Shown here in pieces: positions 25,121-54,877 of a stretch of 64,000 nt of DNA. Below the pieces are notes generated by a model. The model saw only the letters and a list, made by a program, of their open reading frames with translations, ran no database searches and had not been told where the DNA came from. The stretch is from Candidatus Flemingiibacterium merdigallinarum (GTDB lineage Bacteria > Bacillota > Clostridia > Oscillospirales > CAG-272), in NCBI GenBank assembly GCA_904386005.1, contig CAJFKR010000001.1:139525-203524 (forward strand), in the 5' to 3' direction. Both the position numbers and the translations under genes were made by a program. The number at the start of each line of letters is the position of its first letter. Position 1 is the stretch's first letter.

Positions 25121-26113
25121 TCAATAATGCACCGGCACATCGGTTTGGGCGCGTATCGTATCGACCCAGCGCGTGACGGCATCGGGAGCGGGCATAGTGT
25201 CGCAAGACCGCGATGTCTCACGGTTCATCGGATATTCGCGCCCGAGCCGCAGGCATTTCGCCGCGCCGAGCGGGTGGTAGGGCTCGACGTCGATTTCGAT
25301 TATATTCGTCAGCCGATTCGCGAGCGAAGCTATTGCCGCGAGGTGCTCTGGGCGGTCGTTCAGCCCGGGGATTATCGGACAGCGGAGTATCGATTTTGCG
25401 CCGACCGAGTCGAGCCGCAGCAGGTTATCGACAATCTGTCGGTTGTCGACGCCAGTGTATTTTTTGTGCAGCACGGGCGAGGTCTCCTTATAGTCGTAGA
25501 GGAAGATGTCGCAGACCTCGGCGAGCTCACGCAGCCGCTCAAATGGCGCGCAGCCGCTCGTCTCGACGCAGGTGTGCAGTCCCGACGCCTTCGCGCCGCG
25601 GAGAAGATTATAGGTGAATTCGAAGCTGTACAGCGGCTCGCCGCCGGTGACTGTCAGTCCTCCACGGACTGTCAGTCCGTATTCGCTGCCGTAGAAGTCG
25701 CGGTCGCGCAGGACGGTATCGAGCGTCTCGCCGACGGTCAGCTCGCGCCCACAGAGCTCGAGCGCTTCGGCAGGGCAGACGTCGGCGCAGCGTCCGCAGC
25801 CAATGCAGGCGGCGCGGTCGAAGATGTGGATTCGGTCGGGGTGACTGTTGTCGCGGTCGGTGTTACCGACTATGCGGTGGCACTCGCAGACCCGCGCGCA
25901 CTCGCCGCAGCCGATACACTTGCTCTCGTCGTAGAACAGCTCGGGTTCACGCCGCTTCGACTCGGGGTTGTGACACCAAAGGCAGTCGAGCGGACAGCCC
26001 TTCAAAAACACCGACGTGCGTATGCCCGGTCCGTCGTGGACCGAGAAACACTGAATATTGAATACTGTCGCGGTTACGGTCGGGTCGAATTGTGTGGATA
26101 AAATCTGGTTCAT
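25121..26113 (-). CDS. Glycyl-radical enzyme activase AE-1 (radical SAM with two auxiliary ferredoxin-type clusters)
   Basis: FNIQCFSVHDGPGIRTSVFLKGCPLDCLWCHNPES, plus CIGCGECARVC and CIGCGRCADVCP. Start set at ATG 26113 (MNQIL), 43 nt after the GRE-1 stop. Confidence 0.9.
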   Translation of the reverse strand: MNQILSTQFDPTVTATVFNIQCFSVHDGPGIRTSVFLKGCPLDCLWCHNPESKRREPELFYDESKCIGCGECARVCECHRIVGNTDRDNSHPDRIHIFDRAACIGCGRCADVCPAEALELCGRELTVGETLDTVLRDRDFYGSEYGLTVRGGLTVTGGEPLYSFEFTYNLLRGAKASGLHTCVETSGCAPFERLRELAEVCDIFLYDYKETSPVLHKKYTGVDNRQIVDNLLRLDSVGAKSILRCPIIPGLNDRPEHLAAIASLANRLTNIIEIDVEPYHPLGAAKCLRLGREYPMNRETSRSCDTMPAPDAVTRWVDTIRAQTDVPVHY

Positions 26114-26156
26114 GTTTGATTTTGTGTCATCTGGTATCAAGTTCGTCGGCTTTATG

Positions 26157-28265
26157 TCAAATCTCGTGCTCGGTGCGCAGCAGAACTTCCTCCTGCATCT
26201 CGGGCGAGAGGTGGACGAAATAATCGCTGTAGCCGCCGATGCGCACGACGAGGTCGCGATAAGCCTCGGGGTTCTCACGCGCGGCGAGCAGAGTGTCGCG
26301 GTCGACGATATTTATCTGTATCTCGAAACCGCCGCGCGCGAGGTAGGCGCGGATAAGCTCGGCGGCTTTGCGGCGCGAGTCGGCGTTGAAGGTCTTTTTC
26401 GTGAACTTCATATTGACCGCGACGCCGCCGATGAGTTCGGTGTGGCTCCACTTCGTGCTCGACAGTATCGACGCGGTCGGACCGCGCCTCTCGCGCCCCT
26501 GACAGGGACCCGAGCCGTCGCCGAGCGGGAATCCGGCGAGCCGTCCGTCGGGAGTCGCGCCGGTCGAACGCCCGAACTGCTCGTGCATAATCCAGCAGAA
26601 CACGCTCGGCACGAGGTGTCCGTTTGTGAACATAGGCGTGTATTTTTTGCATTCGGCGACGATGAAGTCGATGATACGACCGAACAGCGCGTCTACGCGG
26701 TCGATATCGTTGCCGTATTTGTCACAGCGGTTTAATAGCTTCAGCCGCAGCGGCTCGAAGCCCTCGAAGTTTTTGTCAAGCGCGGTCTTAAGTTCTGCAA
26801 GCGTCAGCTCGCCGCGCTCGAATATCAAGGTTCGGATAGCGTGCAGCGAGTCGACGAGATTCGCCATGCCGACAAAGCTCGGCATGATCCAGTTGTAGCG
26901 CGCGCCTCCCTGCTCTATGTCGACTCCGCGACGAAGGCAGTCGTGGACAAAGCAGGAGAGCAGCGGAGTCATTCCGCGCTCGGCGCGAAGTGCGCGTATG
27001 CGGTTCTGCTCGTCGAAGTTCGCGCGGATGTGGTTCGACAGCCGGTCGAAATAAGCGTTTATCAGCGACTCGAAGTCGTCGTATTCGCCGCCGAGCAGCT
27101 CGAGCAGCAGCCCGGGCATATTTGTGTAGGGGCTGGCTACCCAGACGTTCGACGAAGCTATCGGCGTGATTTCGACGCAGGTACTGTGTATGTACATATG
27201 CGAGTCGGACTCGGGCAGACCGTAGAGCCGTATGCCCTTTGAGATCACGTCGTCGTTGAATATTGCTGGATGCGAGCGTCCGTGCGACAGAATCTCACAG
27301 GCGCAGTCGAGGTATTCGTTCGGCATATCGCGCGTCCAGCAGAGCCCGACCGACGGATAGACGAGCCGTATGTCGTCGACGGCGCGCATACCCATTATAG
27401 TCAGCTCGTTCACGACCGGCTTGCCGTTATCGCGGCCGCCGAGCATATAGCCGGACGAGAGTCCGCGCGGCACACGGCGGTTTATCTGTATCGCGAGGCA
27501 GTCGATGAGGCACTGCGCCGTCTCGTCATCGATCGCTCCGCGCTCGACGTCGGCTTTGTAATAGCGGTAGAGGTAGCGGTCGGGGCGGCCGAGCTGAAAC
27601 TGCTGCGCGGCGAAGTAGCGGAAAGGGTCGAGCGTCAGGCAGTGCGTGACAAAATGCACCGACTGCACGGCTTCCCAGAAGCTCTCGGCAGGACCCGCGG
27701 GCACGCGGCGGCAGATGTTGGCGATAGTCCGCAGCTCTGCGGCGCGCTGTGGGTCGGTGCATTCAGCCGCGAGCTGCTCGGCACGGTTCGCGTAACGGCT
27801 CGCGTAGACCTTGACGGCTTCAAGGCAGGTGCGGCAGCAGCGGTAGAACGCGGCTTTGTCGCCGTCCGTATCGCCGAGTCTTTCGAGACAGGAGTCTATA
27901 ATAGATATAATGCCGTCGATTCCACCATCGAGCAGCAGGTCGTAGTCGACAGCCATATGCGAGTCCTGTCCGGCGATAGCGAGGCGGCTCGCGGCAATCG
28001 GCTGCAAACGCCGCCACTCATCGGCGTCGGCTTCGGTGAGCGGCGCGGACAGGTGTCCGACAATCAGCTCGTCGTCGTCAATCTCGGCGTCGAGTCCGGA
28101 GAGGGCGGTATAATAGGAGCGTGCGTAGCGTTCGCGGTCGTCAAGCTCGGGGCGGCGCTCCCACTCACGCCAGAAGCCGAGGTACATGGCTTCGTGGCAG
28201 AAGCGCGGCTCAACGGCGGCGCTCCGCAGGCGTTCGATGCGCTCGCGGTCGGAAGCTGTAAGCAT
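26157..28265 (-). CDS. Glycyl-radical enzyme GRE-1 (PFL-like fold, eliminase-type Cys-x-Glu loop), 702 aa
   Basis: C-terminal VVRIGGYSDYF with Gly codon at 26232..26234. Thiyl loop STCVE with Cys codon at 27177..27179. N-terminal ERIERLR...DDELIVG pattern. GAAAGGTG RBS before ATG 28265. Confidence 0.9.
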   Translation of the reverse strand: MLTASDRERIERLRSAAVEPRFCHEAMYLGFWREWERRPELDDRERYARSYYTALSGLDAEIDDDELIVGHLSAPLTEADADEWRRLQPIAASRLAIAGQDSHMAVDYDLLLDGGIDGIISIIDSCLERLGDTDGDKAAFYRCCRTCLEAVKVYASRYANRAEQLAAECTDPQRAAELRTIANICRRVPAGPAESFWEAVQSVHFVTHCLTLDPFRYFAAQQFQLGRPDRYLYRYYKADVERGAIDDETAQCLIDCLAIQINRRVPRGLSSGYMLGGRDNGKPVVNELTIMGMRAVDDIRLVYPSVGLCWTRDMPNEYLDCACEILSHGRSHPAIFNDDVISKGIRLYGLPESDSHMYIHSTCVEITPIASSNVWVASPYTNMPGLLLELLGGEYDDFESLINAYFDRLSNHIRANFDEQNRIRALRAERGMTPLLSCFVHDCLRRGVDIEQGGARYNWIMPSFVGMANLVDSLHAIRTLIFERGELTLAELKTALDKNFEGFEPLRLKLLNRCDKYGNDIDRVDALFGRIIDFIVAECKKYTPMFTNGHLVPSVFCWIMHEQFGRSTGATPDGRLAGFPLGDGSGPCQGRERRGPTASILSSTKWSHTELIGGVAVNMKFTKKTFNADSRRKAAELIRAYLARGGFEIQINIVDRDTLLAARENPEAYRDLVVRIGGYSDYFVHLSPEMQEEVLLRTEHEI

Positions 28266-28287
28266 AGACACACACCTTTCAAACAAG

Positions 28288-28549
28288 AGTGGTCTCGACT
28301 TCAGCGAAGCTGAAGTCGAGAGAGTGGAGAGTGGAGAGTGGTCTCAAACCGCCGCAGGCGGTTTGAGAGCTGTGGTAGGAAATCGCCGGAGGCGATTTCC
28401 GGAATTGATTATAAGAGAGGAGAGATGAGAGTGGGGAACGGACTCACCGCGGATGGTTTCGAGAGAACGGGCTCCCAAAGGGTGGTTTCGAGAGAGCGGA
28501 CTCACCGCGTGTGGTTTCGAGAGAGTGGACTTCCCACGGGTGTCGGAGC
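28288..28549 (+). repeat. GA-rich modular hairpin array (three long GNRA-like-looped hairpins plus 29-nt tandem units x3.5)
   Basis: Hairpins at 28293..28321, 28342..28368 and 28378..28400. 29-nt units start at 28438, 28467, 28496 and 28525. The 28318..28400 core recurs at 53783..53862. Confidence 0.7.
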
Positions 28550-28609
28550 TATAATAGCGGGCGGAATGGATTTATGATTGATATCGGTATTAAGACGCTC
28601 CTATAATCA

Positions 28610-29125
28610 TCATTCCTTGACAAAATAGCACATATCGAGAATGACGTTTCCTTTTTCGTCGGGGGTGGTGAAGCGGGGGCACTGGTAACGCTCGAAGAAC
28701 CAGAACGCGCCGTCCATAATCGCAAGCTCAAGCCCCTCGTCGGCAAGGCGAGGACAGATAACGTCCTCACGGCAGTACAGCTCGCCGTTTGACTCATTGC
28801 CGTAGACCTAAGCGACGCCGATTGGCGCGGCGGGGAAATCGTGATAGTCGAGTCCCTCGGGAACGGCGGTGTCAGGCTTCATGAACATTCCGATCCAATA
28901 TTCGAACGGCTCGCCGTCGAGGTGGCGCATGAGTCCGATATACGCGCCGCTGTCCTCGAAAAACTGCTCTCCGGCGATTGCTTCGAGCCGCTCGAATAGT
29001 CCGGTCTCGAACGCTTCGCCCCATTTTGCGCCGAAGCTGCCGTCGTCGCGGTCGTCGTCCGAGTATTTTTTGCCGATAAAGCGGGTCGCGGGCAGGGATT
29101 GTTTATAGATTCGCTTAATTTCCAT
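28610..29125 (-). pseudogene. GyrI-like / AraC-effector-binding-domain small-molecule-binding protein interrupted by an in-frame TAG
   Basis: MEIKRIYKQSLPATRFIGKKY...PIGVA, then TAG (28808..28810), then in-frame VYGNESNGELYCRED...MCYFVKE to the stop at 28610..28612. AAGGAG RBS before ATG 29125. Confidence 0.7.
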
Positions 29126-29373
29126 CGTGTGACTCCTTAGCTTTGTATTGCCGAACGCCATCGGATGCTAAGCGTTCGATTATGGTATAATCATACTACC
29201 ACACGGCTTCTGCCATGTCAATAGCCGGCGCGCAACCTGACGATATTCTATAAATGCTACAAAAATGCAGGTGCAATTTGTACAAATTGCGAGGGCGAGC
29301 TGTCAATATGCTTTTAATACTCCGATTGTGTTCGACTTCGATTTGATGTCATATCAAGAAATATGTTCGTTTC

Positions 29374-30351
29374 TCACAACAGCTTTACTCCGTGAGTGGT
29401 CAGATATTCGCCCGCCGCTCGCAGCTCATCGCGCGTCGGCGGCTGACAATCGCTGTCGCGAACATTGCGTCCGAGCGCGGACAGCTTCGAGTTGCCCCAG
29501 GCGTGATAGGGCAGCAGCTTCACGCCGCCGCAGCGCTTCAAGCGTAGGTACAGCGACGCGATATTGTCGAGGTGCCGCTCGTCGAGGTTAACGCCCTTTA
29601 TCAGGATGCACCGCAGCTGTGTCGGCGCGCCGAGCGAGTCGACCGCGAGCAGATTGTCGACTATCACATCGAGCGCGGCGCCGGTGTTCGCGCGATGCCG
29701 AGCGTCGTCCGAGTCCTTGTAGTCCCAGAGCAGCAGGTCGCACAGCTCAACCAGCCGAGGTATGTATTTCGGGTCAAAGCAGCCGCAGGTCTCGACCGCC
29801 GTTCCGATACCGCGTCGGCGGCACTCGGCGAGCAGATCGAGAGCGCAGTCGGGGCTGTACATCGGTTCGCCGCCCGACAGCGTGATTCCACCCTTAGTTC
29901 CCATGAACGCGCGGTCGCGCTCGACAAGGTCGGCGATTTCGGATATCGACATGAGCCGGTACGACGCCTCGAGCGCACCGGTCGGACAGGCGTCGACGCA
30001 GGCAAAGCAGGATTTGCAGCGCGCGCGGTAGATTGTATGCGAGATGGGGATATTGGTGGGAGTGGGTACGTCAGTGTGAACAGCTTCGAATATATGCGCG
30101 CGGCTCGGGCAAGCCTTGGCGCACTCGCCGCAGCCGATGCACTTCTTTTCATAATATAATAGCTGCGCTTCGCGGCTCTGCGTCTCGGGGTTGTGACACC
30201 ACCGGCAGGACAGCGGGCAGCCGGCGAAAAACACTACCGTCCGCACGCCCGGTCCGTCGTGCATACAAAAACGCTGAATATTTGTTACCGGTATCTGAAT
30301 TCCTATTACCTCCTTTCCTTGCCGATGTTTTGTGACGGTTTTGCGAAGCAA
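29374..30351 (-). CDS. Glycyl-radical enzyme activase AE-2 (start uncertain: TTG 30351, or ATT 30300 behind a strong RBS)
   Basis: NIQRFCMHDGPGVRTVVFFAGCPLSCRWCHNPE, plus CIGCGECAKACP and CKSCFACVDACP. Confidence 0.88.
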   Translation of the reverse strand: MLRKTVTKHRQGKEVIGIQIPVTNIQRFCMHDGPGVRTVVFFAGCPLSCRWCHNPETQSREAQLLYYEKKCIGCGECAKACPSRAHIFEAVHTDVPTPTNIPISHTIYRARCKSCFACVDACPTGALEASYRLMSISEIADLVERDRAFMGTKGGITLSGGEPMYSPDCALDLLAECRRRGIGTAVETCGCFDPKYIPRLVELCDLLLWDYKDSDDARHRANTGAALDVIVDNLLAVDSLGAPTQLRCILIKGVNLDERHLDNIASLYLRLKRCGGVKLLPYHAWGNSKLSALGRNVRDSDCQPPTRDELRAAGEYLTTHGVKLL

Positions 30352-30405
30352 ATCGCGGTCTGTGACCGCGAAGTCACAAAACGCGTGGTTTGAAAAATTT
30401 ATTTT

Positions 30406-32568
30406 TCAAACTTTGCCCTCAAGCTCGGCGATTATCATGTTCTGCCAGTCGCAGTTCAGCGTCACGAAGCGTGCGTTCCAGCCCGACACGCGCACCGACA
30501 GCGCTTGATAATTCTCGGGGTGCGCCTGCGCGTCGCGCAGTATGCTCGCGTCGGCGACGTCCGGCTGCATGAAGAAACCGCCGAGCGTAACAAAGCCGCG
30601 CATCAGTCCGACGATAGCGTCGAGTCCCTCGTCGCCGTCGACGCTGTCGGGCAATAGCTTGATGTCGAGTGCCGCGCCGGTCACTTGCTTTGTGAGGTCG
30701 GCGGCGGCATACGACCGGATAATCGCGGTCGCGCCCTCGCGGTCACTGCCCGGGGTCGGCGAGCAGTTCGGGGCGAGCACCTCATGTGCGCGATGTCCGT
30801 GCGGCGACGCGAGCCGGTTCGGCGCCCACTCGAGCTGACGACCGAACGTGCTGACTCCGCTCGGAAAGCGATACCCGCAATTTGTGCCGAGCCTTTGCTC
30901 CATGTCATGACAGATGTCCGAGAAGTCGGAGAGCAGCTTTGAATAGATCGAGTCGACCTCGGGGTTGTCGTTGCCGAAGTAGCGGTACGCGGTCAGCATA
31001 TGCTGTCGGAGCGGCTCGCTTTCGTCCCAGTCCGCGGCGAGAATATCGAAGAATTCATCGAGCCCCAGCAGCCCCTCGTCGAATACGGCTTTCTTAATCG
31101 CGTACAGGCTGTTCACCGTGTCGGCGAGTCCGCCGATGTGCGGCGAGATGACGTTGTAGACCGGTCCGCCCTCGAAGTAGGAATATCCCCTCTCGATACA
31201 GCCCTGCTCGAACAGCGACACTACCGTGCAAGGGGCGGTCGGACGCCAGACGAGCCTGCCGTCAGGGTCGCGCTCGGTCTCGAAGCGCGCGAGCTGACCG
31301 CGTCCGATTCCCTCGACATATGCCTTGAGGTCGCGGACATACGCGTCGTACAGCGCGTCGAAGTCGGCGAAATCTCGATTCTTGTAGTCGGCGAGCGTCG
31401 TGTGCTGCAAAATCGCGAGCGAGTCGAACGGCGTGTAGATGAAGTAGGTCTTGCCCGGGATCTGCACCTCCCAGCAGCCGTCGTTCGCGAACCTTTTCGC
31501 TTCGCGCTCGTCGTATCCGAATTTGGTCAAGGCGTCGATAATCAGCGGCTCGTTGTACAGCGCGATTATGCCGCCGCCGTAGCGGATAGTGTTCGCGACG
31601 CGGTAGAGAAGCTCGTCGCTCGAGTCGGGCGAGATACGGACGGTTATCGGGAAATCGCTGATACCAAGCTCGTCGATTATGTCGAGGACGAGGTAGGTGA
31701 CATTGCACTCGACCGAGTTGTCGTTCTCGTCGATGCCGCCGAGCAGGATATTCTGATAATGCTGCGCATCGCCACTGCCGTAGTCGCCGCCGCTGACCCA
31801 CTCGCAGCCCTTGATGAAGAAGTGCGCGAGCAGCTCGCGCGCTTCGTCGAGTGTGATTTTGCCGTCGGCGAGGTCGCGCTCGAGATACTCGCCGAGCAGC
31901 ATATCAATCCGTCCGATGCCGGGCCAGTTTCCGCAGAGCCGCACAAACGCGAACGTGAACCACAGGCTCTGCACCGCCTCGCGGAAATTCGACGCCGGCT
32001 CGAACGGCACGCGGCGGAGTATGTCGGCGTTGTCGTGATATCCGCCCGCTTCAAGCGCGTTGATATAGCGGTCGCGCCAGATTAGCATTGAGTCAAGGCA
32101 GCTTTTACAGCTTGCGAGAAACTTAAGCCGTCGGGTCGAATACAGGTCGCTGTTAAATATTATCTCCGACATGGATTTTTCTATTTTGTCGTAAAGACCT
32201 ACGACTCCGTCTCTCAGCACCGACACAAAGTCGAGCGTCAGGTGGCTGACGCTGCCGAACACCGGACGACCGTCGATTGTCGCCGGAACGACGTGCGATA
32301 TCGCAAGTCCGAGTGTCGCCGCGCCCGATATAAGCTCGCCGTCACAGATTCGTATCGGCGCGCTCTCGGCGATACGGCGGATCGCGGCGTTGTATTTTTT
32401 CAGGTCGGACAGCTCCGATATGCCGTCGATATCGTCGAGCGGCACCGACATCACGCGTCGGGTGTCGAGCCCGTAGCGGTGGTCATACAGCGATTCATAC
32501 GCGAAGCGTCGCGTCGCGTCCGAAAGACGCACCGGACGCTTTTCTTTTGATACTGTGAAGAATTCCAT
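30406..32568 (-). CDS. Glycyl-radical enzyme GRE-2, 720 aa
   Basis: C-terminal SVRVSGWNARF with Gly codon at 30481..30483. Thiyl loop DGCWE with Cys codon at 31474..31476. GGGGAG RBS before ATG 32568. Confidence 0.9.
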   Translation of the reverse strand: MEFFTVSKEKRPVRLSDATRRFAYESLYDHRYGLDTRRVMSVPLDDIDGISELSDLKKYNAAIRRIAESAPIRICDGELISGAATLGLAISHVVPATIDGRPVFGSVSHLTLDFVSVLRDGVVGLYDKIEKSMSEIIFNSDLYSTRRLKFLASCKSCLDSMLIWRDRYINALEAGGYHDNADILRRVPFEPASNFREAVQSLWFTFAFVRLCGNWPGIGRIDMLLGEYLERDLADGKITLDEARELLAHFFIKGCEWVSGGDYGSGDAQHYQNILLGGIDENDNSVECNVTYLVLDIIDELGISDFPITVRISPDSSDELLYRVANTIRYGGGIIALYNEPLIIDALTKFGYDEREAKRFANDGCWEVQIPGKTYFIYTPFDSLAILQHTTLADYKNRDFADFDALYDAYVRDLKAYVEGIGRGQLARFETERDPDGRLVWRPTAPCTVVSLFEQGCIERGYSYFEGGPVYNVISPHIGGLADTVNSLYAIKKAVFDEGLLGLDEFFDILAADWDESEPLRQHMLTAYRYFGNDNPEVDSIYSKLLSDFSDICHDMEQRLGTNCGYRFPSGVSTFGRQLEWAPNRLASPHGHRAHEVLAPNCSPTPGSDREGATAIIRSYAAADLTKQVTGAALDIKLLPDSVDGDEGLDAIVGLMRGFVTLGGFFMQPDVADASILRDAQAHPENYQALSVRVSGWNARFVTLNCDWQNMIIAELEGKV

Positions 32569-32764
32569 TGCGGTATCTCCCCTCACAAGAATTGATGTGT
32601 GATTTAATTATACCATATATCGCGCCCGATTTGTATTGACAAAACTATGATAAATATGTATAATACTATTAATAAAAAAACCGCTGTCCGGCGCTTCAGT
32701 CGCACGGCAGCGGAAATATATAAATTATGGATTCGCGGTTTTTGCTAAAAATATGAGGGATAAT

Positions 32765-33547
32765 ATGAAAATCGAGACGATAGACATAAAATACCATTTC
32801 TACGGGCGGTTTCGCGACAATCACTGCGACAACGTGCGCAACATCAAGTCGCTGCCCTGGCTGTCGGTCGTGCAGGCGGAGACCGGACGCTATTCTCTGC
32901 GGCTCGGCGGCAGCGAGACATACGAGATCCCGACCGGCGGCTTCTTCATCGCGCCGTCGCAGGTTACACAGGACATCGTCCACCACGTCGACCAAATGTC
33001 GGGGACGATGAACGCGCGCTGGCTGTTCATTGAGATTGAGGTGAACGGCGGCTACAAGCTCGAACACCTCTACGATTTTCCGGCGGTGGTCGGCGGGGAG
33101 ACTTCGATCAAATTGAACCGGCTGTTCGACGATATGTTCGCGTCGCGCACTCTCTGCGAGCGGATGAGTATTTACTACCGGATAATCGACATTCTGCTCG
33201 GCATCGCGTCGCCGAGGTCGGTGATGCTCGCCGGAAATATGCTCGATATCGCCGGCTACATAGCGAGCAACTACAGCCGTGACCTCTCCGTCGCCGAGCT
33301 CGCGGCAAGGGCGCATATGTCCGAGTCGAACTTCTACGCGGTGTTCCGGCGCAACTTCGGTATGTCGCCGATGGCCTATCTGAACCGATACCGTCTGTCG
33401 GCGGCGTCCGTGCTGTTGACCAGAACAGATCTGACGATAGCCGAGGTCGCGTCGTCGGTCGGGTATACCGACCCGCTCTATTTCAGCCGGCAGTTTCATC
33501 GGCTGTTTCAGGCATCGCCTCGCGACTACCGCAAGGCGGGGGTGTGA
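32765..33547 (+). CDS. AraC-family transcriptional regulator, divergent from GRE-2
   Basis: HTH region LSVAELAARAHMSESNFYAVFRRNFGMSPMAYLNRYRL...YTDPLYFSRQF. GAGGGA RBS before ATG 32765. Confidence 0.85.
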   Translation: MKIETIDIKYHFYGRFRDNHCDNVRNIKSLPWLSVVQAETGRYSLRLGGSETYEIPTGGFFIAPSQVTQDIVHHVDQMSGTMNARWLFIEIEVNGGYKLEHLYDFPAVVGGETSIKLNRLFDDMFASRTLCERMSIYYRIIDILLGIASPRSVMLAGNMLDIAGYIASNYSRDLSVAELAARAHMSESNFYAVFRRNFGMSPMAYLNRYRLSAASVLLTRTDLTIAEVASSVGYTDPLYFSRQFHRLFQASPRDYRKAGV

Positions 33548-36835: not shown

Positions 36836-36839
36836 TGCG

Positions 36840-43231: not shown

Positions 43232-43254
43232 ATCAGGCATACAGTAAATACAGA

Positions 43255-45563: not shown

Positions 45564-45624
45564 TATATCCCCCTCAACTCTGAGATTCGGTTGAGGGGGT
45601 ATCTTTATCTTAAATTGTACGAAA

Positions 45625-46821: not shown

Positions 46822-46990
46822 TGGTTTCGTACTCCCCTCTTATATCCTTTTGTATATATGACGAAAATAATGTTGAAAAGTTCCGATATAACAACAAAAT
46901 GCGTGAAAGTTTGATTATAGTTCATATTTAGTTAACAATATTACCGTCATCAGCGTCATTGCCGTCATCGCGTCAAGACAAAACTATGCC

Positions 46991-47024
46991 AAGATATAAA
47001 TAGACCCGCGATCGGTCGCGGGTC
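46991..47024 (-). terminator. Terminator of fucI
   Basis: Stem gacccgcga/tcgcgggtc with loop tcgg. TATTTATATCTT follows on the minus strand. Confidence 0.6.
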
Positions 47025-47062
47025 GGGATATTGAGGTTGTACTATATGCGCAAATAGCTACA

Positions 47063-48829
47063 TTATTTATACAGCGGACCGTATGCGGCGCAGGCACGGT
47101 AGTCTGCGTCCTCGAGGTTGGTCGTGCCGAATGCCGACCATGCGTGCGGACGGTAGACCTTGTCTGCCGGAATATTGTGCATCGATACCGGTATGCGCAG
47201 CATCGAAGCGAGAGTAAGGATATCCGCGCCGATGTGTCCGTAAGCGAACGCGCCGTGGTTTGCGCCCCAGTTAGCCATTACGCTGTAGACATCGGTGAAC
47301 GCGCCCTCTCCGGTGAGCGTCGGTGCGAACCAGATCGAAGGCCAGGTCGGGTCGGTGCGGTCGAGCAATGTATGGGTTACCTTGTCGGGCAGCTCAACGG
47401 TGTAGCCCTCGGCGACCTGGATTACCGGTCCTAATTTGTCGACGAGGTTGACGCGAACCATCGTAACCGGCATTTCGCCCTTCGATATGTACTGGCTCGA
47501 GAATCCGCCGCCGCGGAAGTAGCCCTTGTTCGCCGGAGCCCACTTCGTGTTGGCGAGCATAGCCTCGATGTCGGCGTCGGTGACGTTCCACCATTCCTTC
47601 ATGACCGAGTTGCCGTTTTCGTCCTTAGCCGCGCCGTTGCCGTCGAGTGCCGACGCGCCAGAGTTGATAAGGTGCATGAAGCCGCCCGATGCCTTGCCGG
47701 TGACCTCAAAGCCGGCGACGCGCTTGACCGCGTCGGGGCTCCAGTAGGTGCGCACGTCGGAGAATACCGCCGGACGGTTCGAGACGAGGTTCAGAAGCAG
47801 CATAGCGAGACCGTTGAGGTTGTCATTCTCGGTAGCGAGAATGAACGGCGGGCGCTTGCCGTTCCAGTCGAACGTCGTGTTGAGTATAGCCTCGGTGAAG
47901 TCAGCGTTCGGCATATAGTCGGTCCACTGGCGCTGACCCTGGAAGCCGCCAAAGATAGCGTTGCGGCCGTTCGACTCCTCGATGTAGCCCATTTCGGCGA
48001 GCTTCGGGTTTCCGAGCATAATGTCGCGGACGATGAGCGTCATCTTCGCGATAAACTCCCACTCCTTCTCGTCCTGCTCGGCGTTGTTCTGCCATTCGGG
48101 CGGATTGACCTCGAGACCCTTCGGGCAGTTCTTCTTGATCCACGCGAGTTCCTTCTCGTATTCGTCGTGATCGTAGATGCCGAGGTCTACGCGGCGGAGA
48201 ATCTCAACCATGTCGACCCACTCGGCGCGAATTCCGAGATACTTCTGCATGAAGTCGGGATCTGCGAACGAGCCGGCGATACCCATTGCGACCGCGCCGA
48301 GTCCGCAGTATGCCTTGCCGCGCATGAGTCCGACCGCGATAGCGCAGCGCGCGAAGCGGAGGATTTTTTCAGCGACGTCGGCGGGAATCGTCGTGTCGCC
48401 CATGTCCTGAACGTCGTGACCGTAGATCGCGAACGCGGGAAGTCCGCGCTGTGCGTGCGCGGCCATGACGGCGGCGAGGTAGACCGCGCCGGGGCGCTCG
48501 GTGCCGTTGAAGCCCCAGACCGCCTTAGTCGTCAGCGGGTCGAGGTCCATAGTCTCGCTGCCGTAGCACCAGCAGGGAGTTACCGACAGGGTCGCGCAGA
48601 CGTTCAGCTTTGAGAATTTCTCGGCGCAGAGAGCGGCTTCCTTGCCGCCGCCGATAGTGGTGTCGGCGATGACGCACTCGACGTGCGTTCCGTCCGGATA
48701 GAAGAGCGTCGACTCGATTAACTCCTTTGCGGCGCGAGCCATGTTCATCGTCTGATCCTCAAGGCTCTCGCGGATTCCGCGGCGGCGTCCGTCGATTATC
48801 GGGCGGATGCCGATTACCGGTTTGTTCAT
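47063..48829 (-). CDS. fucI: L-fucose isomerase
   Basis: 588 aa. N-terminus [24 protein letters not shown] and overall colinearity with FucI. Confidence 0.92.
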
Positions 48830-48856
48830 AATAATATCCCCTTTTCTTTAGGTTAC

Positions 48857-48950
48857 TTCTAAAAATACATAAAAATTCGTGGGAAAAGTAAATCGATGCC
48901 TATGGTATCGATTTATCTTTTCCTTCAGATCGTATTTTTAGAGGTTACCT
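48857..48950. repeat. 94-nt nested-palindrome element, copy B (immediately 5' of the fucI RBS)
   Basis: Roughly 85% identical by eye to 19641..19734. The palindrome arms extend to about 48850..48951. Confidence 0.8.
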
Positions 48951-49264
48951 GTATAGTTTTTGGCAGCGGGCGGATTGCTGGGCTGTAAGCGGATATGTAT
49001 TAGCCCGCGACCTTATTGATTTAAGTATACATATTAAATATACCATACCGCGCGCCATTTTGCAATAGATTTTTTATTATTTTATATGAATTTTCCGGTA
49101 AAGGGAGAAAAATGACTTCGGGCGATAAATCCGGTCGTTGTTATGTAAATTGCCGCAATTGTATTGACAGCGGTAGAAAATTATGCTACAATGTAGATAC
49201 CGAAAGAATAATTCGGAAACGCGGGAAAAGCTATGTTCATGATCAATGAAAGCGAGGGGATGAA

Positions 49265-50236
49265 ATGAAGCATTGGGCAATCGGCGTGCTGCTTGTATTT
49301 ATATGCTGTCTATCCATATCCTGCGCGGATATAGCCGACGACGGCAATTTGAACACGCCGTCGCCGCGAATCGCGTGGCTTGATAGGATTGTCAGAATTG
49401 AACTCGGCGATGACGCTGACCGCATTGTGTCGTCCGACGGCGAGACTATGTATACGTCCGATGGCGAGCTGCTCGGACTCACCGCCGCCGACGGCTGTGT
49501 ATACTTCCTCGAGCGAGAGGCGAACGGCGGTTCGGCATTGAGCCGCGACGTGACTATAGGCAGAATCGACGCGGACGGTACCGTACACAATCTGACAAGC
49601 GAGCTGTTTTCTGACAGTGAAATACACAACGAGCTCGGATTCATACGCATACTTGACGGCAAAATCTTCATCTCGGGCGCGTCGGCATACGGCGACGCGT
49701 ATCTCTGCGACCCCGAAACCGGAAATGTCAGCTTACGAAATATGCCGGCGACGAACGCGCTCGACAGCGAGAATATCTACTACACCGACGGCGGGTACGA
49801 GATATACCGTCTGACCGCCGACAATTTCGGGGGTGAAGCGGAAATTTACTACGACGGCAGTGACTTTGTCGGCTGGGAGGACGCGGAATATTATGTCGGC
49901 GTCGGAATCGAACAATTATGCGTTGGCGGCGGCAGATTGTACTTTACAGTATCGGCATCTGACGGGTATCGGATATATTCATACGACGGCGAGCTGTCGC
50001 TTCTGCACACAAACGAAAATCCGGTGCGTCAGCTGCAATATTACGGCGGTGAGCTGTATTATTCGGACGAAAACGGAATCTGGCGGCTTTCGGACGAGCC
50101 GGAGCGGATATGCGGGCTCTGTGCGCGCGGGGGCGAGTCGGGTCGGCTGCAAATGTTCGCCTGCGATTTTGTGATACACTCGGGTCGGCTTTACTATGAT
50201 ATCGACGATTTGACAGTATACGAGGAGCTTGGATAA
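49265..50236 (+). CDS. Hypothetical lipoprotein, beta-propeller-like (DUF5050-like YY repeats)
   Basis: Lipobox VFICCLSISCAD. Repeated ...YY.D....I.R... strands. Confidence 0.6.
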   Translation: MKHWAIGVLLVFICCLSISCADIADDGNLNTPSPRIAWLDRIVRIELGDDADRIVSSDGETMYTSDGELLGLTAADGCVYFLEREANGGSALSRDVTIGRIDADGTVHNLTSELFSDSEIHNELGFIRILDGKIFISGASAYGDAYLCDPETGNVSLRNMPATNALDSENIYYTDGGYEIYRLTADNFGGEAEIYYDGSDFVGWEDAEYYVGVGIEQLCVGGGRLYFTVSASDGYRIYSYDGELSLLHTNENPVRQLQYYGGELYYSDENGIWRLSDEPERICGLCARGGESGRLQMFACDFVIHSGRLYYDIDDLTVYEELG

Positions 50237-50251
50237 CAGGGAAGTGGTGAC

Positions 50252-50704
50252 GTGAAAAGGTCGCTGTATATATACGCGGGGATTTTGATACTGCACGCGA
50301 TGAATATGTGCGTCAATTTCTATATTGTCTGGCAGTTGAATATACGCAAGTCGTACGACCCGCCGGAGGGGTGGTTCGAGAGGGCTGACCGGCGAATGTT
50401 CATCGCATCGGCACTGGTATTGACGGTGACGGCAATATATCTGCTGGTGATGTGCCGAAGCGAGCGGTGGCTATGTCTATATCCGGCGGCGCTGACGTTC
50501 GTGAGCGGCGTTTCACTTATATCCGCGCGGTTTGAGTGGTCGACGCCGCTGCAACTGCTGATTGATTTTATAGGCGCGCTGCCGGTGGGGGCGCTCGGGT
50601 TCATCGACCGCGGGCACGAGTACGAGCTGTCACTGGTGTACTATGCTGTGCTGACGTTGCTGGTGGTGTGCGTGATGTTGGTTCGGAGACGGGGGCGGGA
50701 ATGA
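50252..50704 (+). CDS. Hypothetical membrane protein (4 TM)
   Basis: GTG start and four hydrophobic segments. No family recognised. Confidence 0.45.
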   Translation: MKRSLYIYAGILILHAMNMCVNFYIVWQLNIRKSYDPPEGWFERADRRMFIASALVLTVTAIYLLVMCRSERWLCLYPAALTFVSGVSLISARFEWSTPLQLLIDFIGALPVGALGFIDRGHEYELSLVYYAVLTLLVVCVMLVRRRGRE

Positions 50705-50737
50705 ACAGCCAGCTTTTATTTTAGGAGGTGATACTGT

Positions 50738-51532
50738 ATGAAAAAATTGGCTGTTTGTGCAGGTCTTATCACTGTGTTATACCTTATGCAAAGCTGTGCG
50801 GGCAATCAGGTCGAAAGCTCAGCGACTGAAATGGTGAATACTACGCCGGTCTCACCGTCCGACGCGTATTCAACCTCTCCGGCTGAAAGCAGCATAGACG
50901 AAACAACACAAACCGCGTCAGTATCAACGCCGGTTGATTATTCGAATACACAAACCTTTGACAGTATACGGGAAATGAAATTATCAATAGAAGGTACATC
51001 AACTGACTTATCTCTTACCGAAAATACCGATATTAATTCCCTGATTTGGCGCGAGCTCACCGGTCTTGACAGTGAGTATTCGGAGGACTTTGTAGAATGG
51101 TCAGGCGGCGGCAGTTATTTCATCTATTATACAAATGGAGAATATGTGACAGCCTTTATGCCGTTTTCGACTGAAGCGGAGCTGTCGGACGCAATGAATA
51201 GTTGGCTTTCAGTCGACGGAACATATGAAAGCCTTACTGCAAACGAGCGGATATCGGATATAGTCAAAAACGATATTGACACCGAGCTCGGCACGATGTA
51301 TGAATGTACATATAATACTGACAAGGTCGAGGGACTGAAAACCCGATATCACGAATATACCGATGAGGGCGGGAGAACCTACATCCTTTCGCAATCGTTT
51401 ATGTCAGACGGCAGTCTGTCAAGCAACGCGTTGTTTGTGTTTGATGGCGAAGCGTCGTTTATGTGCAGCGGAAATGACCCGAGCTTTACGATGAACTCGG
51501 CACTTAGTCTGATATCGGCTGCAATTGAATGA
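50738..51532 (+). CDS. Hypothetical lipoprotein
   Basis: Lipobox VLYLMQSCAG. TAGGAGG RBS. Confidence 0.6.
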   Translation: MKKLAVCAGLITVLYLMQSCAGNQVESSATEMVNTTPVSPSDAYSTSPAESSIDETTQTASVSTPVDYSNTQTFDSIREMKLSIEGTSTDLSLTENTDINSLIWRELTGLDSEYSEDFVEWSGGGSYFIYYTNGEYVTAFMPFSTEAELSDAMNSWLSVDGTYESLTANERISDIVKNDIDTELGTMYECTYNTDKVEGLKTRYHEYTDEGGRTYILSQSFMSDGSLSSNALFVFDGEASFMCSGNDPSFTMNSALSLISAAIE

Positions 51533-51540
51533 ATAATCTC

Positions 51541-51574
51541 ATCTCCGGCAGCTTCGCTGCCGGAGATTTTTTTC
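51541..51574 (+). terminator. Rho-independent terminator
   Basis: 11-bp stem atctccggcag/ctgccggagat followed by T7. Confidence 0.75.
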
Positions 51575-51701
51575 ATTTTTTTTGTCTTTTTCCCCTTGCC
51601 AAACCCCGCGCTTTGCGGTATAATATTCACAAAGCAATATGATTTGTCCTGCTAAAACACAGGATATATCTGCCAAAATCAGTCAGAAAGGATAATTGCC
51701 A

Positions 51702-53687
51702 ATGTCACAAGCCCTGCTTGACTATGTCCTCGCCGGTGAGCATCACGCGTTCCGCCGAGACGCCGCCGACGCGCTCGGAATCGACAATCTCGCCGAATAC
51801 TACCGCGCCGCCGGACTTACGCCCGAGGAGCGCATGGCGGACCGCTTCGAGCGGCTCTGCCGTGCCGAAACACCGCGTATACTTCCGGACGAAAAAATCT
51901 GCTATGTCCGCACGATAAAAAATATCCCCGACTGCTTCACGCCCGACGAGTGGGACGAGATACGAAAAGGTCACTTCATCCACGAGATCGGCTATATCTC
52001 GAACCTCTCGCCCGACTACGCGAAGGCAATCTCGCGCGGCCTCGTTGCACTGCGCGAAGAAGCCGACGAATACGGACGGCGCGCTATCGACAACATCATC
52101 GACCTCGCCGACCGCTACCGCGACGAGGCTTTGCGTATCGGCCGCGGCGACATCGCCGCGACGCTCGAGCGCGTGCCGCGCTACGGCGCGACGAATCTGC
52201 GCGAGGCGTTGCAGTTCTTCCGGATAATCCACTTCTCGCTCTGGCTCGAGGGCAACTACCACGTCACGACCGGACGCTTTGACAAATACATCTACCCCTA
52301 CTTCAAAGCCGACATGGACAAGGGAATATATACGCGCGAGACCGCGCTCGAGCTCATCGAGGACTTCTTCATCTCGTTCAACAAGGACAGCGACCTCTAC
52401 CCCGGAGTTCAGCAGGGCGACAACGGTCAGTCCATGGTGCTCGGCGGCCGCGACAAAAACGGGCGCGAATGGTTTTCCGAGCTGTCCGAGCTCTGCCTTG
52501 AGGCGAGCCGGAATCTCGGGCTGATCGACCCGAAGATAAACCTGCGCGTGTCGAAGTCGACTCCGATCGATGAATACATAAAGGGCACCGAGCTCACCCG
52601 CGCCGGACTCGGCTTCCCGCAGTATTCGAACGACGACGTCGTAATCGACGGGCTTGTCTCGCTCGGATATTCGCCCGAGGACGCGGCGAACTATGTCGTC
52701 GCCGCCTGCTGGGAGTTTATAATCCCGGGCTGCGCGTTTGATGTCGTGAATATCGGCGCGCTGTCATTCCCTAAGGTTATCGACACTGTGCTTCACACGA
52801 GCTTTTCGGGCTGCAATGACTTTGACGAGCTGCTGGGGAAAGTGCGCGACGAAATCAACGCCGAATGCGACTCGATAACCTCGAAGATTCACGATTTGTG
52901 GTTTGTGCCGTCGCCGTTCATGTCGGTCATGCTCGACGATATCAAGTACCGCAATTTCGGCATACACGGCACCGGCATCGCGACCGCCGCCGACTCGCTC
53001 GCGGCGATTCGAAAATATGTCTATGACGATAAATCCATAACTCCAACCGAGCTTATCGCCGCGGTCGACGACAACTTCGAGCACACTCCCGAGCTGTTGC
53101 ACAAGCTGCGCTATGACGCGCCGAAGATGGGACGTGACGACGACTATGTCGACGGTATCGCTACGTCGCTCGAGGATATGTTCGCCGACTCGCTCGCCGG
53201 CCGCCGGAACTGTGAGGGCGGAATCTATCGCGCCGGAACCGGCTCGGCTATGTACTACCTCTGGCACGCCGCCGAAATCGGCGCGTCGCCCGACGGCAGA
53301 CGCCGCGGCGAGCCGTTCGGCACGAACTTCTCGCCGAGCCTGTTTGCCGATACTGACGGTCCGGTGTCGGTCATAAAGTCGTTCACAAAGCAGCATCTCG
53401 GCAGGGTGATAAACGGAGGTCCGCTGACGCTCGAGTTCCACAACAGCGTATTCCGCGGCGACGACAGCCTTGAAAAAGTCGCGGCTATAGTCAAGTATTT
53501 TATCGACCGCGGCGGTCATCAATTGCAGCTGAACTCGGTCAATCTCGAGACGATGAAGGACGCGAAGCTGCACCCCGACAAGTACCGCCGTCTGGTCGTG
53601 CGGATCTGGGGCTGGAGCGCGTACTTTGTCGAGCTCGACCCCGAGTATCAGGATCATGTTATCGCGAGACAGGAATACAGCATTTAG
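51702..53687 (+). CDS. Glycyl-radical enzyme GRE-3, 661 aa (shortest of the three)
   Basis: C-terminal VVRIWGWSAYF with Gly codon at 53610..53612. Thiyl loop AACWE with Cys codon at 52707..52709. GAAAGGA RBS before ATG 51702. Confidence 0.9.
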   Translation: MSQALLDYVLAGEHHAFRRDAADALGIDNLAEYYRAAGLTPEERMADRFERLCRAETPRILPDEKICYVRTIKNIPDCFTPDEWDEIRKGHFIHEIGYISNLSPDYAKAISRGLVALREEADEYGRRAIDNIIDLADRYRDEALRIGRGDIAATLERVPRYGATNLREALQFFRIIHFSLWLEGNYHVTTGRFDKYIYPYFKADMDKGIYTRETALELIEDFFISFNKDSDLYPGVQQGDNGQSMVLGGRDKNGREWFSELSELCLEASRNLGLIDPKINLRVSKSTPIDEYIKGTELTRAGLGFPQYSNDDVVIDGLVSLGYSPEDAANYVVAACWEFIIPGCAFDVVNIGALSFPKVIDTVLHTSFSGCNDFDELLGKVRDEINAECDSITSKIHDLWFVPSPFMSVMLDDIKYRNFGIHGTGIATAADSLAAIRKYVYDDKSITPTELIAAVDDNFEHTPELLHKLRYDAPKMGRDDDYVDGIATSLEDMFADSLAGRRNCEGGIYRAGTGSAMYYLWHAAEIGASPDGRRRGEPFGTNFSPSLFADTDGPVSVIKSFTKQHLGRVINGGPLTLEFHNSVFRGDDSLEKVAAIVKYFIDRGGHQLQLNSVNLETMKDAKLHPDKYRRLVVRIWGWSAYFVELDPEYQDHVIARQEYSI

Positions 53688-53912
53688 TGAGGAGTTAGGA
53701 GTTAGGAGTGAGGAGTTTCGGTAGAAATTCGCCGAAGGCGAATTTCTGAAACAGAGTGGACTCAAATTCGCGAAGCGAATCCGAGAGAGTGGAGAGTGTG
53801 TGGTCTCAAACCGCCGAAGGCGGTTTGAGAGCTGTGGAAGCAATTCGCCGGCGGCGAATTGCAATTGTTGGAAATTAGAATCCGGCGGATTTGGAAATGA
53901 GTGGTCTCACCA
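53688..53912 (+). repeat. GA-rich modular hairpin array between GRE-3 and AE-3
   Basis: AGGAG x4 run at 53689..53715. Hairpins at 53723..53747, 53761..53787, 53804..53830, 53840..53862 and 53879..53891. The core is shared with 28318..28400. Confidence 0.7.
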
Positions 53913-53935
53913 CACGATTATGAATTATCCCGGCT

Positions 53936-54877
53936 TTGCCGGTTTTGGTGCGAATGAACGATATATTTGATACAGCTGATGGAATTGAAAAATCTGGTCG
54001 GGCTGACGGATTTGATGGAATTGACAAATCTGATAAATTTGATAAAGGCGAAGATACACACGAGCCGCGCGGCATCGTCTTTGACATAAAGGAGTTCGCG
54101 GTGCATGACGGGCCGGGTGTGCGGACGACGGTGTTCATGAAAGGCTGTCCGCTTTCCTGCCGCTGGTGTCACAATCCCGAGGGCTTGTCGCCGCGCCCCG
54201 AGCTGATGGTCAAGACCGCGCGCTGCCGTCACTGCGGCTTGTGTACGCGTCCCTGCGAACACGAGGACTGCAAGCCGTACGGTCGCTGTCTGCATATCTG
54301 TCCGGAGGGACTGATATCGGTCGTCGGCAAAAGCTGGACGCCCGACGAGCTGGCGGCGCGGATACTTCGAGACTATGATTTTCTGAAATCGAGCGGCGGC
54401 GTGACGATCTCGGGCGGCGAGCCGACGATGCAATCCGAGTTCGTGTCAGAGCTGCTGCGCCGGCTGCATGGGCTGCACCGCGCGGTCGAGACCTGCGGAT
54501 ATTGCAGCGGCGAGCGGTTCACGTCGGTGATAAATGAGTGCGATTATGTGATAATGGACATAAAGCTCGCCGACCCCGAAGCGCACAAGGTGTGGTGCGG
54601 CGTCGACAATGCCCCGATCCTCGAAAATTTCGAGCGGTTAAGGTCGAGCGGGCGCGAGTATCTCGTCCGAGTGCCGCTGATACCCGACGTCACCGACACG
54701 CGCGAGAATCTCGCCGCGATATCCGAAATCGTCGGCGACAGCAGGGTCGAGCTGCTCGGCTACAACAATATGGCGGGCGCGAAGTATGCCGGAGTCGGGC
54801 GGGTTTACACGCTTCCTGACAAGAAGAACCGCGAGATCGACCTTGCGCTGTTCAAGCACGCGGTATTGAGCCGGTAA
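53936..54877 (+). CDS. Glycyl-radical enzyme activase AE-3 (start uncertain: TTG 53936 or ATG 53954)
   Basis: FDIKEFAVHDGPGVRTTVFMKGCPLSCRWCHNPE, plus CRHCGLCTRPC and CLHICP. Low-complexity N-terminal extension. Confidence 0.88.
   Translation: MPVLVRMNDIFDTADGIEKSGRADGFDGIDKSDKFDKGEDTHEPRGIVFDIKEFAVHDGPGVRTTVFMKGCPLSCRWCHNPEGLSPRPELMVKTARCRHCGLCTRPCEHEDCKPYGRCLHICPEGLISVVGKSWTPDELAARILRDYDFLKSSGGVTISGGEPTMQSEFVSELLRRLHGLHRAVETCGYCSGERFTSVINECDYVIMDIKLADPEAHKVWCGVDNAPILENFERLRSSGREYLVRVPLIPDVTDTRENLAAISEIVGDSRVELLGYNNMAGAKYAGVGRVYTLPDKKNREIDLALFKHAVLSR

Follow-up and report, generated by a model that had tools for sequence, protein, structure and literature searches.

Within a 64,000-nucleotide stretch of the Candidatus Flemingiibacterium merdigallinarum genome (contig CAJFKR010000001.1, positions 139,525 to 203,524; hereafter the window, whose own numbering is used throughout), we analysed three compact glycyl-radical enzymes (GRE1, GRE2 and GRE3), each of which is followed downstream, on the same strand, by its own radical-SAM activase (AE1, AE2 and AE3). 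The sequence evidence makes it probable that they constitute three independent, functional systems of the eliminase/isomerase type, acting on different and novel substrates that are probably derived from sugars. The three compact families to which they belong occur widely among Clostridia of the gut and rumen, and no member of them has yet been characterised biochemically. The genes and their key residues, referred where appropriate to the numbering of glycerol dehydratase (GD), are as follows.

GRE1: 26157-28265, minus strand, 702 amino acids; RIGGYS Gly loop and STCVE Cys loop; Gly678 (codon 26232-26234), Cys363-Val-Glu365 (~27171-27179), His103 equivalent to GD His164
AE1: 25121-26113, minus strand, 330 amino acids from a probable ATG at 26113; CPLDCLWC and a two-cluster ferredoxin insert
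GRE2: 30406-32568, minus strand, 720 amino acids; RVSGWN Gly loop and DGCWE Cys loop; Gly696 (codon 30481-30483), Cys365-Trp-Glu367 (~31468-31476), His109 equivalent to GD His164
AE2: 29374-30351, minus strand, open reading frame from TTG 30351; CPLSCRWC and two CX2CX2CX3C motifs
GRE3: 51702-53687, plus strand, 661 amino acids; RIWGWS Gly loop and AACWE Cys loop; Gly637 (codon 53610-53612), Cys336-Trp-Glu338 (~52707-52715), Asn101 at the GD His164 position and invariant His187 at the GD Ser282 position
AE3: 53954-54877, plus strand, open reading frame opening at TTG 53936, ATG 53954 being the probable start; CPLSCRWC and a compact insert

Catalytic subunits and their activases

All three catalytic subunits match the Pfam models PFL-like (PF02901, E values from 1e-78 to 1e-112) and Gly_radical (PF01228, from 2e-16 to 5e-24). 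Together with the list of open reading frames (ORFs) and their translations, these matches bear out a preliminary description of this DNA, made from the letters alone, which had placed three PFL-fold ORFs at these coordinates and had read in them the glycyl-radical fingerprints and Cys-x-Glu loops listed above. Counting in the translations confirmed the Gly codons it had given and the exactly 24 residues between the radical Gly and the C-terminus in each protein, a tail length that is not special to them, as GD has Gly763 in a chain of 787 residues.

Cys363, Cys365 and Cys336 align with Cys433 of GD. To describe conservation we used one alignment of 35 sequences per family, about 60-97% identical to the window protein, in which these Cys residues are invariant, as are the CVE of GRE1 and the CWE of GRE2 and of GRE3; in each family the Gly, Cys and Glu are accompanied by a further ~150-210 invariant positions. 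Exact matches to the three proteins are deposited at NCBI, GRE1 (HIX93796.1) and GRE2 (HIX93799.1) as 'hypothetical protein' and GRE3 (HIX91296.1) as 'pyruvate formate-lyase'. The Cys-x-Glu loop had been presented as a signature of the eliminase clade; the motif is indeed present in all three proteins, but its exclusivity did not stand, since according to a 2026 review it is also found in GRE isomerases and in 4-hydroxyphenylacetate decarboxylase (HPAD; Cys503/Glu505) (PMC13450708).

A dedicated activase had likewise been proposed for each enzyme, and this held: AE1, AE2 and AE3 pass the NCBIfam model for GRE activases, TIGR02494 (307, 290 and 270 bits, where the cut-off is 174), while no equivalog model is passed by any of them. 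The two ferredoxin-type Cys clusters attributed to every activase are present in AE1 and AE2, whose inserts of ~60 residues hold 8 Cys in two CX2CX2CX3C motifs, but not in AE3. There, the insert characteristic of the family has 26 residues and 7 invariant Cys, with a His between the fourth and the fifth in all 8 of the sequences displayed (CX2CX2CX3C-x-H-x2-C-x5-C-x3-CP), and Pfam finds no Fer4 domain in AE3 (insert at window 54220-54320). The activases of the GRE3 clade are generally short, at ~251-272 amino acids in loci L010-L089. AE3 itself also carries a 38-residue low-complexity insert at its N-terminus, NDIFDTADGIEKSGRADGFDGIDKSDKFDKGEDTHEPR (window 53954-54070), which arises in part from an imperfect 18-nucleotide tandem repeat and was not found in the 11 family members with displayed N-termini (~40 aligned).

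The start of AE2 is uncertain. A strong ribosome-binding site, AGGAAAGGAGG (~30312-30322), is followed only by ATT and ATA codons, and the nearest canonical start, the TTG at 30351, lies upstream of that site; an independent gene caller predicts a protein of 296 amino acids, and starting at the ATG of residue 30 would remove conserved N-terminal residues. It is possible that AE2 uses a non-canonical start codon.

Compact length and three separate lineages

The short lengths pointed out in the preliminary description are genuine, and we ruled out start-codon and assembly artefacts on three grounds. The longest possible ORFs encode 709 (GRE1), 726 (GRE2) and 663 (GRE3) amino acids before an upstream stop is reached, an extension of at most 2-7 codons; the identical proteins each occur on 37-39 independent contigs, the longest of 348 kb; and each protein has homologues of its own length by the hundred, with tight distributions, mostly 696-704 amino acids in the GRE1 family, ~709 in the GRE2 family and 655-663 in the GRE3 family (among the 120 matches listed for each, 58-97% identical). 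We also rejected a split gene with the N-terminus encoded upstream, since the residues are absent from inside the chain, after the ELIVG motif and before the His loop, and what lies upstream of the three genes is a divergent AraC regulator, a lipoprotein gene with a terminator behind it, and an unrelated ORF that is interrupted.

When aligned with canonical representatives of ~790 amino acids, GRE1, GRE2 and GRE3 lack the same two segments. The first, of ~55-70 residues, falls after the ELIVG motif and before the loop bearing the GD His164 equivalent, so that none of the three has the full helical region of ~160 residues that precedes the His loop; the second comprises ~20-35 residues following the Cys-loop hairpin. 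GRE3 additionally lacks a 13-residue segment, 'CIxxGxxxxxGGA', and parts of two helices, and GRE1 lacks ~14 residues ahead of the VGG strand, while representatives of intermediate length carry partial versions of the gaps. As judged from these alignments, compactness consists in the absence of two peripheral segments, and barrel, Cys loop and Gly domain are not truncated. The review describes a conserved GRE dimer interface formed by N-terminal helices (PMC13450708), of which the absent N-terminal segment may be a part.

Short GREs are common, not rare. A scan of 1.84 billion cluster representatives with GRE3 returned 1622 clusters at E values of 1e-30 or below, and among the best 150 there were 109 full-length representatives of 50%-identity clusters, 39 of them below 700 amino acids and 28 between 700 and 749. 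Three representatives of 50%-identity clusters (P0412, P0416 and P0421; 634-668 amino acids) have the PFL fold and are 32-34% identical to residues 3-611 of GRE3. Neither the Cys-x-Glu loop nor the C-terminal glycyl-radical domain is present in P0412 and P0416 as aligned, and the match of P0421 also stops at GRE3 residue 611; all three may be non-radical or split GRE-like proteins.

GRE1, GRE2 and GRE3 share just 25-30% identity in an all-against-all comparison, in agreement with the divergence seen earlier by eye, and their activases 32-45%. We compared them by BLASTP, over ~600 residues, with the catalytic regions of GD, 1,2-propanediol dehydratase (PD), PflD, HpyG and CutC, which were transcribed from phmmer alignments with their lengths checked, and obtained identities of 29-33% for GRE1 and of 27-29% for both GRE2 and GRE3. 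The subfamily model TIGR01774 (PFL2/glycerol dehydratase, cut-off 678.2 bits) is missed by GRE1, GRE2 and GRE3 at 437, 276 and 298 bits, with alignments that start at profile positions 153-209. The equivalog models, with cut-offs of 994-1150 bits, are missed by a factor of 3-5: the best scores are 342, 227 and 271 bits, all with the HypD model, and none of the three proteins reaches the cut-off for CutC, HypD, HpsG, HpfG, the indoleacetate and 4-hydroxyphenylacetate decarboxylases or PFL. Models of eliminases outscore those of decarboxylases and PFL (for GRE1, HypD 342, indoleacetate decarboxylase 245 and PFL 90 bits), the PFL model giving 80-90 bits for the three proteins. NF007437 ('formate C-acetyltransferase', model PRK09983), which we take to be of the PflD type, gives 331, 223 and 240 bits, where 1109 are required. 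With a best identity of 33%, far from the 45% named in the preliminary description as marking a known enzyme, and with every NCBIfam cut-off missed, none of the three clusters with a characterised GRE, the outcome that would have refuted its interpretation.

The AlphaFold2 models of GRE2 (pLDDT 87.7) and GRE3 (pLDDT 84.9) superimpose on GD, PD, HypD and CutC with TM scores of 0.82-0.84 at 20-24% identity (to GD and PD, 0.83 for GRE2 and 0.82 for GRE3), and no single known enzyme stands out. In an approximate neighbour-joining sketch, GRE3 falls within a large clade of proteins of 609-709 amino acids, GRE1 and GRE2 each have a long branch of their own among groups of 690-775 amino acids, and the characterised GREs, of ~780-810 amino acids, occupy the crown. 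GD is also a better-scoring match for each compact enzyme than either of the other two is (for GRE1, 321 bits with GD, 191 with GRE3 and 186 with GRE2). On this sequence evidence, the separate tree positions and the higher scores to GD than to one another indicate three separate lineages and no single 'short' clade, which supports the earlier suggestion of one or more uncharacterised GRE subfamilies and refines it to three.

Active-site residues, gene context and candidate reactions

We listed the residues found at six positions of GD (164/281/282/339/447/640) in a MAFFT alignment, which agrees with the phmmer alignments and in which each pattern is identical in all the family members that it includes.

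GD: H/H/S/Y/D/Y
PD: H/H/S/F/D/Y
GRE1 family: H/Q/Q/S/A/F
GRE2 family: H/N/W/Y/gap/S
GRE3 clade: N/Y/H/G/N/G

Invariant in the 35-sequence alignments are H103, A377 and F556 of GRE1, H109, W215 and Y271 of GRE2, and N101, Y186 and H187 of GRE3. From the GD/PD set, the equivalent of His164 is kept in GRE1 and GRE2 and that of Tyr339 in GRE2, and none of the six residues is kept in GRE3; for the GD set of His164, His281, Ser282, Asp447 and Tyr640, this leaves His164 alone, in GRE1 and GRE2. As far as aligned residues can tell, simple orthology with GD or PD is excluded for all three enzymes. In the GRE3 clade, the Asn at position 164 and the invariant His at the Ser282 position suggest that the acid catalyst has moved from the former site to the latter.

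From the conserved residues and established GRE chemistry, as set out in the review (PMC13450708), we infer the following course of reaction. The [4Fe-4S] cluster held by the CX3CX2C motif of the activase would cleave S-adenosylmethionine, and the resulting 5'-deoxyadenosyl radical would take a hydrogen from Gly678 (GRE1), Gly696 (GRE2) or Gly637 (GRE3). The glycyl radical would in turn give a thiyl radical on Cys363, Cys365 or Cys336, respectively, which would abstract hydrogen from a substrate carbon that bears a hydroxyl, and Glu365, Glu367 or Glu338 of the loop would deprotonate that hydroxyl, the CXE glutamate being described in the same source as a general base in GRE chemistry (PMC13450708). 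The ketyl radical so formed would then expel a leaving group from the vicinal position (a hydroxyl, or the oxygen of a ring or ether), assisted by His103 in GRE1, by His109 in GRE2 and, in GRE3, probably by His187 at its shifted site.

The context of the GRE3 family was surveyed in 80 loci of a one-genome-per-species collection, which holds at least 485 relatives, by clustering the neighbouring ORFs. The activase is present in 74 of the 80 loci, a divergent AraC gene in 30 and an upstream LacI gene in 11. Glycoside hydrolases are sporadic, with genes of the GH36 type near 20 of the 80 loci. Among the neighbour clusters, a GH36-like 'raffinose synthase' occurs in 13 loci, a melibiase in 7 and DUF4867 in 7, and the neighbours are otherwise varied. 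The order GRE3, AE3 and GH36-like gene seen in the window recurs in loci L001 and L005. The hosts include Acutalibacteraceae, Oscillospiraceae and Lachnospiraceae, and among them two cultured organisms, Ructibacterium gallinarum DSM 107454 (locus L065) and Bacterium 1xD8-48. Across 80 metagenomic loci of the GRE2 family, the recurrent neighbours are limited to the activase and a divergent AraC gene, the latter in 17 of them and also in loci L008 and L009. The five places in other genomes sampled for the GRE1 family have in their vicinity genes for AraC, GH32 or other glycoside hydrolases, a LacI-like regulator or a sugar ABC transporter. No conserved small neighbour gene was detected in the 160 loci of the GRE3 and GRE2 families.

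An intact activase stands beside the GRE in nearly every locus with downstream sequence. Since activase and regulator are the main recurrent neighbours, each system is a self-contained regulator-GRE-activase cassette without a dedicated downstream pathway. Within the window, a Pfam scan covered selected ORFs of the 64 kb, most of at least 150 amino acids, with smaller or overlapping ORFs set aside; it showed no gene for a microcompartment shell, aldehyde dehydrogenase, phosphotransacylase or sulfite reductase, consistent with the absence of known GRE-pathway partners reported before. 1,3-propanediol dehydrogenase was likewise not found among the scanned ORFs, and neither it nor a shell, aldehyde dehydrogenase or phosphotransacylase figures among the recurrent neighbours of the families. 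The substrates are most likely sugars, polyols or other glycoside-breakdown products, which would be sensed by the adjacent AraC and LacI regulators.

Several observations weigh against this reading. The link to carbohydrates is statistical and weak: the neighbours are very diverse (134 different Pfam families among 130 neighbours), and no glycoside hydrolase or transporter lies near three quarters of the GRE3-family loci and essentially all those of the GRE2 family; the association of the cassettes with carbohydrate genes is modest but repeated. The occurrence of CXE in HPAD means that the motif does not fix the reaction class, and the matching of active-site residues depends on how loops align in sequence. 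Finally, the Gly loop of the GRE3 model has a pLDDT below 50, and the sequences in the tree sketch were picked by their similarity to GRE3.

A different GRE chemistry, be it the decarboxylation of an arylacetate-like acid or an undescribed reaction type in place of 1,2-elimination or isomerisation, is the alternative that best survives, and we regard it as unlikely. It would accommodate the CXE motif of HPAD, the TIGR01774 scores below cut-off and, in GRE1, a hydrophobic set at the aligned pocket positions (Ala377, Phe556 and Trp558); moreover, the review recounts that uncharacterised clades repeatedly gave new chemistry (PMC13450708). However, the models and structures of decarboxylases and X-succinate synthases score consistently below those of eliminases, no HPAD/BSS-like small-subunit genes are adjacent, and the regulators are of the sugar-type AraC or LacI families.

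There is still less reason to believe that one or more of the enzymes are trimmed orthologues of a known GRE, such as PD or GD, with a known substrate. GRE3 lies ~3 kb from a gene for L-fucose isomerase, a proximity repeated at two related loci, and fucose fermentation yields propanediol; GD and PD are the best PDB and Foldseek matches, and the His164 equivalent persists in GRE1 and GRE2. These hints are outweighed by identities to GD and PD of just 27-33%, by equivalog scores far under their cut-offs, and by substrate-contact positions that mostly differ from those of GD and PD (all six in GRE3). Nor do the scanned ORFs of the window include genes for a microcompartment, an aldehyde dehydrogenase or a 1,3-propanediol dehydrogenase, and the linkage to fucose isomerase is confined to close relatives (73-78% identity), being absent at a homologue of 67% and from the recurrent neighbour clusters of the 80 species.

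That the three genes have been cut short by deletion and now represent paralogues in decay or without catalytic activity is scarcely credible, even though they are shorter than all characterised GREs, show local disruption around them (the ORF at 28609-29125, the repeats and hairpins upstream of GRE1 and at GRE3-AE3, the low-complexity insert of AE3) and have distant relatives, P0412 and P0416, without the Cys and Gly motifs, because their ORFs are intact, the Gly, Cys, Glu and ~150-210 other positions are invariant across 35 sequences, family lengths are tight, an intact activase is kept in nearly every locus with downstream sequence, and GRE3 alone has relatives in at least 485 places of the one-genome-per-species collection.

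Returning to three functional eliminase/isomerase-type systems, a bolder version can be put forward as a speculative possibility. Given that they lack part of the N-terminal helical region, which in canonical GREs provides the dimer interface, the compact proteins could be minimal scaffolds that are monomeric or differently assembled, and they might carry out undescribed radical C-O chemistry on free sugars, glycosides or polyols set free by glycoside hydrolases of the gut, with a relocated acid in GRE3. If this were true, they would represent one or more new anaerobic routes of carbohydrate deoxygenation or ring opening in abundant uncultured Clostridia.

Glycyl-radical enzymes are behind the production of trimethylamine, hydrogen sulfide, p-cresol and skatole in the gut, and thereby affect the host, and new members of the family have repeatedly revealed new anaerobic pathways. 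Our analysis defines three concrete uncharacterised families, each with a cognate activase, invariant residues at GD substrate-contact positions and candidate sugar-responsive regulators. The two peripheral segments that are absent in common point to what a GRE can spare, which is relevant to the engineering of enzymes that are hard to handle. Our full-text literature searches turned up no account of these families, nor of compact GREs as a class, and the portions of the 2026 review available to us contain no mention of compact forms of 650-720 amino acids or of shared deletions (PMC13450708). The review states that entire GRE clades are unannotated and without experimental validation (PMC13450708), and the three families are examples of such clades. 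The finding is a solid starting point for enzyme discovery, of practical use though hardly a surprise to specialists, who are aware that whole GRE clades lack annotation; it fills a known gap and overturns no expectation.

Neighbouring features and comparison with known systems

The other features of the window that bear on the three cassettes are listed in order of position.

23811-24920, minus strand: alanine dehydrogenase/PNT-family gene, directly 3' of AE1
28290-28545: repeat-rich spacer upstream of GRE1, with three overlapping 49-nucleotide copies (28436-28542) and GC-rich hairpins
28609-29125, minus strand: interrupted frame between the cassettes, 170 codons with one in-frame TAG at codon 106
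29221-29193, minus strand: promoter-like site ahead of frame 28609-29125
30353-30371: terminator-like hairpin between GRE2 and AE2
32636-32664: consensus promoter (promoter scan) between GRE2 and the divergent AraC gene
32753-33547, plus strand: AraC-family regulator (HTH_18 and HTH_AraC, Pfam), divergent from GRE2
51541-51567, plus strand: terminator-like hairpin ahead of GRE3
51596-51624, plus strand: promoter-like site TTGCCA-17-TATAAT ahead of GRE3
53688-53935, plus strand: spacer between GRE3 and AE3, 248 nucleotides with 4-5 GC-rich hairpins, such as GAAATTCGCC-GAA-GGCGAATTTC
54954-57032, plus strand: GH36-like 'raffinose synthase'/Sip1 protein, 692 amino acids (PF05691, 2.7e-62)
57063-57090: terminator closing the GRE3-AE3-GH36-like unit
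57106-57915, minus strand: AraC-family regulator with a cupin sensor domain (Pfam), convergent with the GRE3 unit

The AraC gene at 32753-33547 likely regulates the GRE2 cassette, and that at 57106-57915 is a candidate regulator of the GRE3 unit. GRE3, AE3 and the GH36-like gene appear to be co-transcribed as one unit, since the promoter-like site at 51596-51624 and the terminators at 51541-51567 and 57063-57090 bracket them. The spacer between GRE3 and AE3 has a predicted RNA fold of -88.7 kcal/mol (z -4.56) and is specific to this lineage, the distance from GRE to activase being just 2-15 nucleotides in three homologous loci. A similar hairpin (CTCAAACCGCC...GGCGGTTTGAG) was observed upstream of GRE1, at ~28340-28370, and the likeness of the two suggests a dispersed palindromic repeat element; the 49-nucleotide copies in the same spacer are set 29 nucleotides apart and are 73-82% identical.

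The frame at 28609-29125 has no Pfam or NCBIfam match, and a second assembly of this species likewise shows a call of 105 amino acids at its position. Its probable identity is that of a pseudogene or a small, unrelated gene, and it may alternatively be a read-through gene. A GyrI-like identity considered for it was dropped for want of Pfam support, and small accessory subunits of the HPAD/BSS type, sought between AE2 and GRE1, were discarded as well, the two small ORFs there being this single TAG-interrupted frame without a family match. The alanine dehydrogenase gene is served by a separate promoter that matches the sigma-70 consensus perfectly (25008-24980), its position next to the cassette is not conserved at other loci, and we rejected it as a pathway partner; a 391-residue ORF on the opposite strand is probably spurious.

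The tandem of GRE1 and GRE2 recurs, altered, in one other genome (GCA_054297425.1; locus L172, 3719-9109), where a GRE2-family gene (49% identity), a URO-D-like gene and a GRE1-family gene (64%) are followed by genes for a Peripla_BP_4/ABC sugar transporter, with no activase within 7 kb. The tandem is found neither in the four other places of the GRE1 family nor in the other GRE2-family loci, and a functional link between the two enzymes was set aside, the arrangement being treated as occasional. GRE3-family cassettes sometimes adjoin longer GRE and activase pairs (732-803 amino acids) or the anaerobic ribonucleotide reductase NrdD, as in loci L025, L033 and L062 and in 3 of 40 GRE3-family loci sampled; the window is thus not alone in having radical-enzyme cassettes close together.

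Among known systems, CutC, HypD, IslA, IseG, HpsG and HpfG belong to the same branch of the superfamily as the three compact enzymes and share with them the CXE loop and the activase subfamily. Compared with CutC, HypD and the sulfonate lyases and dehydratases, however, the three differ in length by 70-190 amino acids and score 3-5 times under the cut-offs, and in the scanned ORFs of the window they have no cut, hyp or sulfite-reductase partners.

GD from Clostridium butyricum (1R8W) and PD from Roseburia inulinivorans (5I2A; 9RCO) have the same 10-stranded barrel as the models of GRE2 and GRE3 (TM scores of 0.82-0.83) and, like all three compact enzymes, a C-terminal glycyl-radical domain with the Gly 24 residues from the end and a G-C-x-E Cys loop; their activases also resemble AE1 and AE2 in carrying a ferredoxin-type insert. 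The PDGR motif is TPDGR in both GD and GRE1 and SPDGR in GRE3, whereas GRE2 has SPHGH. The compact enzymes are 67-126 amino acids shorter than GD and PD and 27-33% identical to them, and H281, S282, D447 and Y640 of GD are not conserved in them.

The GRE sugar-phosphate isomerases YbiW/PflD (8ID7, 8ID0, 8YJO), which open the rings of 1,5-anhydroglucitol-6-P and 1,5-anhydromannitol-6-P, are full-length enzymes of ~765-810 amino acids, unlike the three. According to the review, they belong to defined anhydroglycolysis pathways with aldolases (PMC13450708), whereas no conserved aldolase or kinase partner is seen among the recurrent neighbours of the GRE3- and GRE2-family loci. Nevertheless, YbiW and PflD are CXE enzymes that act on carbohydrate-derived substrates; their similarity to the three compact enzymes, in sequence and in fold, is comparable to that of GD and PD, with GRE1 33% identical to PflD, and PflD, like GRE3, has Gly at the position of GD Tyr339.

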